DNA from: a virus
Lineage: Duplodnaviria; Heunggongvirae; Uroviricota; Caudoviricetes
DNA: 33,353 nucleotides
Virus record (IMG/VR): IMGVR_UViG_2874951433_000004
Direction: 5' to 3' (one strand)
The notes beneath the pieces are model-generated. The model did not search any database and was not told where the DNA came from. It saw only the letters and a list, made by a program, of their open reading frames with translations. Positions within the stretch are counted from its first letter, which is position 1; every line of letters starts with the position of its first letter. Both the position numbers and the translations under genes were made by a program. Shown here piece by piece: positions 3,104-4,523 of this stretch.

Positions 3104-3132
3104 TTGACATTAGTCTTTGAAAATGCTAGTAT
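3104..3132 (+). promoter_or_regulatory. sigma70-like promoter candidate (TTGACA - 17 nt - TAGTAT) upstream of the 3181 operon
   Basis: TTGACA at 3104-3109, 17-nt spacer, TAGTAT at 3127-3132; AGGA at 3165-3168 ahead of ATG 3181. Confidence 0.4.
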
Positions 3133-3180
3133 TGTATATAAGTTAACAGAGAATTAACAATTATAAGGACTAGCTTATGA

Positions 3181-3735
3181 ATGAACGACAGAGAATTTAG
3201 AGCGATGCTTCAGGCATCAAGAGAACGCAACAAGCACAACTCCTACAGCTACACAAACTCCCCCACCAGCTACGAACTGCCAGCCTTTTCCAAAACCGAA
3301 CGTAAAAACATTGAAGCGGTCATTCGTAGCATTACACCACGGGTAAGACACATGCCAACACGCAAAGAAAAAGAGAACACTTTAAAGACTTTCCTGATGA
3401 GTTTTGATAGCTACGAACAATTACCATCACGAATTGAAGATATTATTATCGGAACTTGCCGTAATGCCGGAAGAGATAATTATCACCGAAAAGTTTTCTA
3501 TTTACTACGAAATATTGACAAGATTAGCTCAAGCACAATAACAAGTTATCTGCAGCGTCAAGCGACCCGATTAAGCCATGAGCTACCAAGTGATAAATAT
3601 TGCGCTAACTTAGCCACTATTTGCATGAAAGTTATTGAGACAATTAATCATCATGCGGAAGTGGGCAATATCAGCCTTACAACCAATGAACCAGACTTTG
3701 AATTTGACGTATACGCACAAGCAGAGGAATTTTAA
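3181..3735 (+). CDS. hypothetical protein, first gene of a four-gene operon
   Basis: ORF track 184 aa; promoter-like element upstream; next gene starts 2 nt after its stop. Confidence 0.55.
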   Translation: MNDREFRAMLQASRERNKHNSYSYTNSPTSYELPAFSKTERKNIEAVIRSITPRVRHMPTRKEKENTLKTFLMSFDSYEQLPSRIEDIIIGTCRNAGRDNYHRKVFYLLRNIDKISSSTITSYLQRQATRLSHELPSDKYCANLATICMKVIETINHHAEVGNISLTTNEPDFEFDVYAQAEEF

Positions 3736-3736
3736 A

Positions 3737-4024
3737 ATGAAAAACAAACACACTTTAACCCGTATTACAAAGACAGCCTTTGAAGAACTTAACCGAATCA
3801 AAAACATTACAGGTCTGCCACACTCAGCAGTGATGAAGCTTGCAATTAACCGTGATATTAACGAACAAGATTTGCTTAATAGTTGCTTAGAGGCTGCAAG
3901 ACACCATATCAGGATTAAGCAAGATGACCTTGATAGTCTGAAATCTTTAAATGCTTTTGGACTGGATTTAGCAAGGTTGCTAAGCATCAAAATTCACAAG
4001 TTAAAGTTAGAGATGGGGGTCTGA
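3737..4024 (+). CDS. putative small DNA-binding protein (ribbon-helix-helix-like pattern)
   Basis: ATG at 3737 in frame with ORF 3635..4024, AGAGGA 8 nt upstream; N-terminal short strand then two helices (TLTRI / TKTAFEELNRIKNITG / PHSAVMKLAI) resembles RHH regulators; assignment by pattern only. Confidence 0.4.
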   Translation: MKNKHTLTRITKTAFEELNRIKNITGLPHSAVMKLAINRDINEQDLLNSCLEAARHHIRIKQDDLDSLKSLNAFGLDLARLLSIKIHKLKLEMGV

Positions 4025-4239
4025 TGCTATGCGTTACCTTTGAATACCACACGGATAAAATGATTCGCTACATCTCCGACCTCCTGATTAAAGGAAACGG
4101 ATTCGGTGACATCCATAACTCAAAAGATATTTTCATTAAAGTCATTGGCCCAAATGAATCACTGAAAACAGCAGTTAAACCGGAATGGTTTGAGCGTCAC
4201 AAGATTGAATTAGGTTATTGGGGTGAGGAGGTTTTATGA
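4024..4239 (+). CDS. hypothetical small protein, translationally coupled (TGATG overlap with the upstream gene)
   Basis: ORF track 71 aa; start overlaps previous stop; its stop overlaps the next start (ATGA). Confidence 0.4.
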   Translation: MLCVTFEYHTDKMIRYISDLLIKGNGFGDIHNSKDIFIKVIGPNESLKTAVKPEWFERHKIELGYWGEEVL

Positions 4240-4523
4240 AACCTTGGCATGAAGATGTTAGACGATATTTTACAGAGCACCTTATCTATGATGAATCCAG
4301 TGATTCCCTGTGCTGGTCTGATGGAGAGTCAGTCACGATAAATACCGACGACTACGGCAACAAAACATTTAATATAGGCCGATACACTTTCTACGTGAAA
4401 TATGTTGTCTGGTTCCTTTATCATGGCTATCAATCCAATAAGCAAATTATCCATCGAAATGGTAACAGGGCTGATACCAGACCAAAAAATCTTATGCAAG
4501 TCCGAGACTTTAAGAGAAATTAG
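4236..4523 (+). CDS. HNH endonuclease-domain protein (phage HNH_3-like motif)
   Basis: ORF track 95 aa; C-terminal stretch YTFYVKYVVWFLYHGYQSNKQIIHRNGNRADTRPKNLMQV resembles the HRxVW...DHiNGn..DNR..NL signature of freestanding phage HNH nucleases, with substitutions. Confidence 0.5.
   Translation: MKPWHEDVRRYFTEHLIYDESSDSLCWSDGESVTINTDDYGNKTFNIGRYTFYVKYVVWFLYHGYQSNKQIIHRNGNRADTRPKNLMQVRDFKRN

Follow-up and report, generated by a model that had tools for sequence, protein, structure and literature searches.

Satellites of strictly virulent phages are, to our knowledge, known in detail only for the Vibrio PLE and phage ICP1 and for a few marine systems. PLE are small, AT-rich elements bounded by a large serine recombinase gene on the opposite strand; they consist mostly of small uncharacterised genes on one strand, contain a long non-coding stretch, are linked to a virulent myovirus and carry homing-endonuclease-type nuclease genes at exchange boundaries (PMC10055350). 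The same traits were observed in a family of AT-rich mobile islands of about 11 kb, a truncated copy of which occupies positions 1-9625 of the DNA analysed here (IMG/VR record IMGVR_UViG_2874951433_000004, 33,353 nt; hereafter the window). The subject of this report is the four-gene operon at positions 3104-4523 of the window, with the genes g1 to g4. On balance, this region appears to be the promoter-proximal arm of a truncated serine-recombinase island that would parasitise virulent myoviruses of the Felix O1-like group (Ounavirinae) in the manner of a satellite and that carries a young, putatively homing-type g3-g4 cassette. The likeness to PLE is one of sequence layout, and a PLE-like behaviour of the island is putative. 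In contrast to PLE, the island measures about 11 kb instead of about 18 kb, carries its own tape measure and tube initiator genes, resides in Escherichia, Shigella and Citrobacter and has Ounavirinae as presumed helpers; no homology to any annotated family, RepA_N or PLE marker genes was found by Pfam scan.

Putative E. coli satellites with tape-measure and baseplate genes were described by Barth et al. (PMC10055350). Like the island, these satellites possess a tape measure gene and a baseplate component while most tail genes are absent, and a subset of them uses a serine recombinase; unlike the island, they encode capsid/decoration proteins and RepA_N and mostly use tyrosine integrases beside tRNAs. 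At least one of the phages linked to them, Muut, is a Justusliebigvirus (Stephanstirmvirinae) and not a member of the Ounavirinae. Six genome accessions of island carriers were absent from the supplementary text of Barth et al., and a literature search yielded no paper linking satellites with Felixounavirus or Ounavirinae. The island family has apparently not been described so far.

The island family and its phage-derived tail genes

Megablast with positions 2900-4700 gave matches in 384 of 5426 complete E. coli genomes, and a more sensitive g1-g2 search found relatives in 367 of the 5426 (about 7%). Intact copies had a length of about 11-11.7 kb and were located at three chromosomal sites: between yciI and tonB, between ymdF and wrbA, and inside yecE, which is thereby split into two pseudogene halves. 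The left end of the island is variable and contains a small Resolvase-family gene, a Dam-like methylase gene or hypothetical genes, followed by 1-3 kb without annotated genes. The order is then constant, i.e. g1, g2, a variable slot, genes for proteins of about 105, 236 and about 70 aa, a TMP_3 tape measure gene and a gene for a Dit_like "baseplate" protein. A large serine recombinase of 506-547 aa (Resolvase, Recombinase and Zn_ribbon_recom domains), encoded on the opposite strand, marks the end of the island. The G+C content was 34-42% in window positions 1-9000 and 50-59% further right, in agreement with the first-pass annotation of this DNA, which had proposed an AT-rich island; the island is horizontally acquired. 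Two tail genes were recognised in the window copy:

6785-8755, plus strand: island tape measure protein, 656 aa (Pfam TMP_3; PHROG tape measure)
8852-9625, plus strand: tail tube initiator homolog (Dit_like), the last island gene before an insertion of insertion sequence (IS) elements

The Dit_like protein was 70-74% identical to the corresponding protein of Ounavirinae (SUSP1/2, Felixounavirus; 299 phage records), in which its gene directly follows the tape measure gene, as it does in the island. In a cryo-electron microscopy study of phage Bas63, the phage protein (gp18) was named the tail tube initiator (PMC12609058). The island tape measure protein showed 28% identity over 450 residues to that of phage SUSP2 and is about 90 residues shorter. 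Also, the order of g6 (236 aa), a 69-aa gene, tape measure and initiator parallels the phage order of two chaperones, tape measure and initiator. The tail genes of the island are thus of phage (Felix O1-like) origin. Sheath, tube and lysis genes are absent from the island; its own tape measure and tube initiator genes without other virion or lysis genes, the serine recombinase, the low G+C content and the one-strand layout together form the architecture of a virulent-phage satellite. As expected of phage satellites, the intact relatives are integrase-bounded islands within 5-20 kb that lack a full virion gene set, and the tube initiator, with the tape measure gene beside it, matches a specific phage group, the presumed helpers. 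Four related IMG/VR loci (L013-L016) have contig names which we take to denote predictions from isolate genomes; they give no sign of packaging. None of g1-g4 showed homology to phage structural or replication proteins, a homology that according to the first-pass annotation would have contradicted its view; their neighbours, however, are phage tail genes. Its suggestion of phage defence or counter-defence held in part, in that the island is linked to phage conflict, but no known defence system was matched in PADLOC.

Downstream of the window copy, an IS110-family transposase and two elements of the IS3 family occupy positions 9677-11888 and 14321-15517; one of the IS3 elements contains an ALIL frameshift pseudoknot (9958-10074). 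These IS elements abut a lambdoid prophage (RusA at 12092, Q at 12442), the closest prophage relatives of which carry ipaH effector genes; such neighbours point to a Shigella-like genome.

Operon layout, control region and the core genes g1 and g2

The positions and junctions of the open reading frames (ORFs) were read from the window sequence and its translations. The ORF block lies on the plus strand and consists of four coupled genes behind a promoter:

3104-3132, plus strand: sigma-70 promoter TTGACA-17-TAGTAT with a TG extended -10, conserved in 17 loci
3142-3159, plus strand: direct repeat GTTAACAG-N4-TTAACA, candidate operator, between the -10 hexamer and the Shine-Dalgarno (SD) sequence of g1, present in 17 of 17 loci
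3181-3735, plus strand: g1, 184 aa, helical core protein, signature gene of the island superfamily
3737-4024, plus strand: g2, 95 aa, conserved throughout the close family as a core gene, probably a tandem ribbon-helix-helix protein (on a weak basis)
4024-4239, plus strand: g3, 71 aa, small accessory protein whose gene opens the variable slot
4236-4523, plus strand: g4, 95 aa, free-standing gene of the HNH_3 endonuclease family, motif IIHRNGNRADTRPKNL
about 4024-4665, plus strand: young mobile tract of g3, g4 and the hairpin IR-B, 94-100% identical between diverged islands

Each of the four genes has its own SD sequence. The stop of g1 and the start of g2 (TAAAATG, start at 3737) are separated by a 1-nt gap and do not overlap, while the g2/g3 and g3/g4 junctions are overlaps (TGATG and ATGA, respectively). 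Both g1 and g2 were present in 16 of 16 close loci, with ratios of nonsynonymous to synonymous substitution rates (dN/dS) of 0.19 and 0.18, respectively. All four ORFs are real genes under purifying selection. Neither g1 nor g3 gave a match in Pfam, PHROG, NCBIfam or PADLOC, as the first-pass annotation had anticipated when it found no recognisable family for either.

The promoter that the same annotation had placed before the four coupled ORFs was confirmed by the sequence and by its conservation. It comprises the -35 hexamer TTGACA at 3104-3109, a 17-nt spacer and the -10 hexamer TAGTAT at 3127-3132, and was the top-scoring site within 800-9700 (10/12). Promoter-like sites as a class were not above chance in this interval (29 found, 25 expected); support for the promoter therefore derives from its near invariance across the 17 related loci, in which the coding flanks are only 54-84% identical. 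Conservation amounted to 93% in region 3061-3119. The repeat GTTAACAG-N4-TTAACA downstream of the -10 hexamer is a natural candidate operator, and TTAACAG/GTTACAG words are strand-biased across the island. According to the mechanism that we propose, the conserved, strong host-type promoter would drive g1 and g2, and an adjoining promoter that points leftward would serve the gene of a small membrane protein; g2 would probably act on the conserved TTAACA repeats at the g1 promoter.

The family of g1 is narrow, with 26 representatives (E<=1e-3) among 1.84 billion cluster representatives. A scan of GTDB genomes with the g1 profile recovered four loci only, and a wider g1 alignment was too diverged to serve as a seed. 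Distant relatives of g1 (25-36% identity) were located in islands of the same design, which encode a TMP_3 tape measure, a small resolvase and a large serine recombinase and in some cases also a Dam methylase. Six such islands of other Enterobacterales (L005-L008, L025-L026) carried the large serine recombinase, a g1-like gene, the small resolvase and TMP_3; one set is inserted inside a Band_7 gene beside copA/cueR and the other beside cmoA/cmoB, the genes that flank the yecE site in E. coli. Genes similar to g1 were also found in true phages, where they likewise come directly behind a long stretch devoid of ORFs; examples are Aeromonas phage 85AhydR10PP and a contig with a terminase and an SU10-type portal. 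A GRKP AT-hook-like motif is present in distant g1 homologs, and the C-terminus of g1 forms an acidic-aromatic tail. The g1 product is helical and probably binds DNA; as its gene invariably comes directly behind a long control region without ORFs, it would most likely be a master early regulator or an origin-binding protein.

Homologs of g2 were restricted to Escherichia and Citrobacter; the genes of about 95 aa that follow the g1-like gene in the distant islands had no similarity to g2. Two putative strand-helix-helix units (HTLTRIT... and HHIRIKQ...) can be read from its sequence, and the two halves align in register, TRIT with IRIK (hhalign E=0.019). The protein may thus be compared with tandem ribbon-helix-helix proteins of the TraY type and with the MetJ, Arc and CopG repressors: two strand-helix-helix units would be contained in a chain of about 95 aa, and the nearby promoter has direct repeats spaced by roughly one turn of the helix. 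Unlike these proteins, g2 passed no family model; its fold is predicted at low confidence and its DNA binding is putative. The ribbon-helix-helix pattern noted in the first-pass annotation thus has no more than weak support, from the DndE match cited below, and g2 is probably, on weak evidence, a tandem ribbon-helix-helix DNA-binding protein.

Several results argue against the roles proposed for g1 and g2. No structural match of g1 to any known DNA-binding fold was found. The Pfam match of g2 to DndE reached 15.7 bits with a cut-off of 25 (E=0.018) and was thus below threshold, as was TIGR03184 (E=0.06). An AlphaFold2 model of g2 had low confidence (predicted local distance difference test score of 52); it contained two helix pairs as expected, no strand was called, and the model was too poor for a structure search. 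Furthermore, the allele classes of g1 and g2 reassort independently, so even this pair is mosaic and the two proteins need not act together.

Upstream of the operon, two further features were observed on the minus strand:

3097-3068, minus strand: promoter-like site TTAACA-18-TATGAT (TG), a consensus match only, back to back with the g1 promoter
2657-2899, minus strand: divergent small membrane-protein ORF (MVNLPPEL...), which tblastn located at the equivalent position of 16 loci, among them Citrobacter L010

In relatives, the divergent ORF encodes 58 aa with one transmembrane helix; the window copy has lost its stop codon and extends to 81 aa. The promoter-like site faces this ORF, and the palindrome IR-A (see below) lies within its 5′ untranslated region. 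A type I toxin or a factor that acts in lysis or on the membrane is conceivable as its product. Positions 834-2650 form a stretch of about 1.8 kb without an ORF of more than 50 aa on either strand, matching the unannotated 1-3 kb of the E. coli relatives, and are rich in plus-strand TTAACAG/GTTACAG words and G-rich hairpin-like pieces. In the related locus L002, a tandem repeat of about 95 bp was observed within the ORF-free region. A search for iterons in this region gave only weak, unconvincing repeats. An Rfam scan of positions 1-12000 with permissive E-values detected the IS3 frameshift knot only; neither the ORF-free region nor the operon gave a match. The ORF-free region may serve as an origin or encode non-coding RNA.

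A young, swappable cassette with an HNH_3 gene

The contents of the slot behind g2 were compared in 16 close loci. Five gene contents were distinguished, all of which are translationally coupled:

Type A: g3 and g4; the window and six other loci
Type B: a 128-aa protein unrelated to g3 and g4, with a weak C-terminal helix-turn-helix
Type C: a different HNH_3 gene of 90 aa (41% identity to g4), followed by a 76-aa gene and a 69-aa g3-like gene (35% identical)
Type D: the HNH gene of type C and the 128-aa gene
Type E: a 66-aa g3-like gene alone

Genes of the g3 family and HNH genes were each found without the other. Among the seven type A loci, mean pairwise nucleotide identity was 54-84% in g1, g2 and the downstream genes and rose to 94-100% at about 4012-4670. 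The edges of this tract were the same in every pair: it begins where g2 stops and g3 starts, and its right limit coincides with the end of the hairpin IR-B. The median dS in the same loci was 0.07 for g3 and g4 and 1.22 for g1, and was saturated for most pairs of g2. A total of 226 genomes contained the cassette, with an identity of about 96-98%; for g1-g2, most matches to the window reached only 60-80%. Likewise, the HNH gene of type C was on its own 96-99% identical inside the otherwise different type D context. The unit of g3, g4 and IR-B is therefore a young, swappable cassette that has recently spread between diverged islands, and g1, g2 and the cassette have separate evolutionary histories. 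The self-contained four-gene module of the first-pass annotation was not retained, as g1 and g2 are core genes of the island and only g3-g4 with the hairpin is swappable; its proposal that a homing-endonuclease cassette is involved was supported by the young tract and by the precise presence or absence of g4. Searches against phage genomes yielded one 30%-identical match for g4 (a Sulfitobacter phage) and none for g3, and neither Ounavirinae nor other coliphages yielded a relative of g4. Known coliphages therefore do not share the cassette.

A diverged allele of g3 in strain C4 (L018, 8965-9165) differed from the window gene with a dN of 0.16 and a saturated dS. In the RefSeq/PGAP annotation of L001/L002, g3 starts at an internal Met (59 aa); the 71-aa start is backed by an SD sequence before 4024 and by the conservation of MLC(V/I)(T/K)FEY in the diverged allele.

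The g4 protein passed the Pfam model HNH_3 (PF13392) at residues 53-89 with 34.3 bits (cut-off 24.8, E=1.8e-8) and matched PHROG HNH families (2.7e-8), so that the HNH_3-like motif with substitutions described in the first-pass annotation proved correct, with the Asp and the central NN replaced. The motif IIHRNGNRADTRPKNL retains the general-base His (His73 in IIHRNG) and the distal metal-binding Asn (in KNL), roles which we assume from the motif register with I-HmuI and the Cas9 HNH domain. Since single-metal-ligand nucleases such as I-PpoI exist, activity of g4 is compatible with its substitutions, and nuclease activity is plausible from the motif. Comparison with PDB sequences gave spurious antibody matches only, and PADLOC a chance-level MTase_II match only (E=0.014). 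Between type A loci, g4 differed by 2-10 nt and 0-2 aa (dN 0-0.009, dS 0.04-0.16); almost all of these differences are synonymous, which shows that the gene is not decaying.

Strain C4 lacks exactly the DNA corresponding to 4222-4498, and its HNH-less junction reads GGCTATTGGTAGCCCGAGACTTT. The inserted DNA brings its own SD sequence (GAGGAGG) and start codon; the insertion lengthens g3 by five codons, and the last eight codons of g4 are pre-existing intergenic sequence. Presence and absence with precise boundaries, together with a tract younger than its flanks, are the signature of a free-standing homing-type nuclease gene, and g4 behaves as such a gene. In this respect it resembles the HNH_3 homing endonucleases of phages (T4 Mob genes, I-HmuI and the HNH-3 homing endonuclease genes of ICP1), with which it shares the HNH_3 domain, insertion between genes together with an SD sequence of its own, presence/absence polymorphism, identity far above that of the flanks and a site at a boundary of modular exchange. 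In contrast to those genes, g4 encodes only 95 aa without a NUMOD, AP2 or zinc-finger DNA-binding domain, has substitutions in Asp-His and NN and is located in a chromosomal island instead of a phage genome; its cleavage activity is a prediction. We propose that the region 3′ of g2 acts as a hot spot for small accessory genes, here g3 and g4, and that g4 was inserted precisely at the end of g3. Together with the terminal hairpin, the two genes would then have passed jointly between islands that differ greatly in g1, g2 and the tail genes. The most likely route is homing, in which a nuclease initiates double-strand-break repair, between islands that share a cell or replicate together.

A number of findings weigh against a satellite island with a homing-type cassette. 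The recombinase end of the window copy is replaced by IS elements after 9625, and a Pfam scan of the island proteins recognised no replication initiator (RepA_N), capsid or terminase genes. All loci have the same left edge of the tract, whereas homing co-conversion predicts ragged edges. The g4 motif has Ile instead of Asp before the general base and DT instead of the central NN, and no second or DNA-binding domain was found in the 95-aa protein by Pfam, PHROG and NCBIfam scans. Finally, the second HNH_3 gene (90 aa; L004, L009, L017, L019, L021, L020) has Phe in place of the catalytic His. This Phe-bearing gene is still 96-99% conserved over diverged islands and two downstream contexts.

One alternative, which we consider rather unlikely, is that g4 is not selfish and serves as a domesticated effector of the island that cuts or nicks the helper genome or aids packaging, with g3 as its partner or specificity factor; the cassette would then have spread by its benefit to the island. 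Precedents are said to exist in NixI of PLE, which reportedly nicks or cuts the helper phage genome, and in the HNH protein gp74 of HK97, which reportedly assists DNA packaging together with terminase. The strong purifying selection on g4 (dN about 0 at the dS given above), the translational coupling of g3 and g4 and the occurrence of the cassette in about 60% of the islands would fit such a role, and the recruitment of nuclease domains of homing-endonuclease origin by satellites has been described (PMC10055350). On the other hand, g4 is dispensable, as islands exist with g3 only, with the unrelated 128-aa gene or with the other HNH gene. A terminase or cos-type module is not nearby, the separate occurrence of g3-family and HNH genes argues against a partnership, and Ounavirinae and other coliphages have no g4 relative, as mentioned above.

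The palindromic elements of the island bear on a second alternative. An imperfect palindrome of about 120 nt is present in three copies per island, one of them inverted, and in two sequence subtypes that retain the hairpin in different registers:

1650-1763, minus strand: IR-0, copy in inverted orientation in the ORF-free region, fold z=-3.72
2908-2999, plus strand: IR-A, degenerate copy upstream of the g1 promoter, fold no better than shuffles (z=-0.32)
4532-4659, plus strand: IR-B, long imperfect hairpin after the slot, 26-nt arms and 71-nt centre, right end of the young cassette

The fold of IR-B had a minimum free energy of -45.5 kcal/mol (z=-4.45 against shuffled sequence), and copies occur in relatives. 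According to the second alternative, the cassette moves in an integron-like manner by site-specific or hairpin-guided recombination at these palindromes, with the small resolvase/invertase as a possible enzyme and the HNH gene as a passenger. The sharp, identical edges of the tract at the g2/g3 junction and at the end of IR-B are better explained by this exchange than by homing; moreover, each cassette consists of ORFs followed by an imperfect palindrome, in islands with three such copies of which one is inverted, and small Resolvase-family genes are present in several islands. No palindrome is located at the left edge of the tract, however, since IR-A lies upstream of g1 and not at the g2/g3 junction. 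Many islands, including the window, lack a small resolvase, and no integron integrase is present. A specific reading of the palindromes as integron attC sites was rejected, as there is no IntI tyrosine recombinase and the AAC...GTT boxes lie at the inner and not, unlike in attC, at the outer ends of the 26-nt arms. Hairpin-guided exchange would also leave the precise indel of g4 unexplained, as well as the HNH gene that is the only part common to the type C and type D cassettes. It is therefore distinctly improbable as the main route of spread.

Still less credit is given to the view that the island is a decaying prophage remnant in which the operon has no current role. The window copy, truncated by IS elements and devoid of a recombinase, and the upstream small ORF without a stop codon would be in agreement with decay, but the same compact architecture is intact at three sites in hundreds of genomes, g1-g4 are under purifying selection behind an invariant promoter, and no trace of the capsid, terminase or lysis genes that mark a shrunken prophage was found. 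A toxin-antitoxin or abortive-infection module with g2 as ribbon-helix-helix antitoxin and g3 and/or g4 as toxin is scarcely credible, although the gene order (a small ribbon-helix-helix-like gene, overlapping small ORFs and a strong promoter) resembles type II loci and the first-pass annotation had suggested a toxin-antitoxin-like pair: PADLOC, Pfam and NCBIfam gave no toxin or antitoxin match, and the same g2 allele class precedes either g3-g4 or the unrelated 128-aa gene that replaces them while different g2 classes precede an identical g3-g4, a reassortment that speaks against the co-evolution of a cognate pair.

Further repeats were observed downstream of the cassette. A hairpin between g5 and g6 (5433-5511) has 22-nt arms that are 91% complementary and a minimum free energy of -35.4 kcal/mol (z=-7.1). 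A U-tract is absent from this hairpin and from all copies of the palindrome. A 59-nt direct repeat (6640-6698 and 8774-8832, 71% identical) is located just 5′ of the tape measure and tube-initiator genes and may be a shared regulatory site; a search for it in the structural region of phage SUSP2 gave nothing above noise.

Meaning for the island family

A broader version of the favoured reading, put forward tentatively, is that the islands constitute an undescribed PLE-like satellite family of Felix O1-like phages in Escherichia, Shigella and Citrobacter. The island's own tape measure and initiator would re-programme the tail assembly of the helper, g1 would be a new-fold regulator or origin-binding protein of a wider superfamily, and the HNH genes would drive the exchange of the slot. 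If a satellite nature is true, the islands would provide an abundant counterpart in E. coli and Shigella that is aimed at Felix O1-like phages, and thus a tractable model, present in about one in fourteen complete E. coli genomes. As Ounavirinae are widely used in phage therapy and typing, the island would matter for both applications. A satellite with a tape measure and a tube initiator, and not with capsid-remodelling genes, suggests tail assembly as the step that would be hijacked or blocked.

As an element, the HNH gene is of an ordinary kind, and its distribution offers a clean natural example of nuclease genes at the boundaries of modular exchange in a chromosomal island. The present result separates two conserved proteins of unknown fold, g1 and g2, from this mobile HNH cassette, and the interest of the locus lies mainly in the island family and in these two core proteins.

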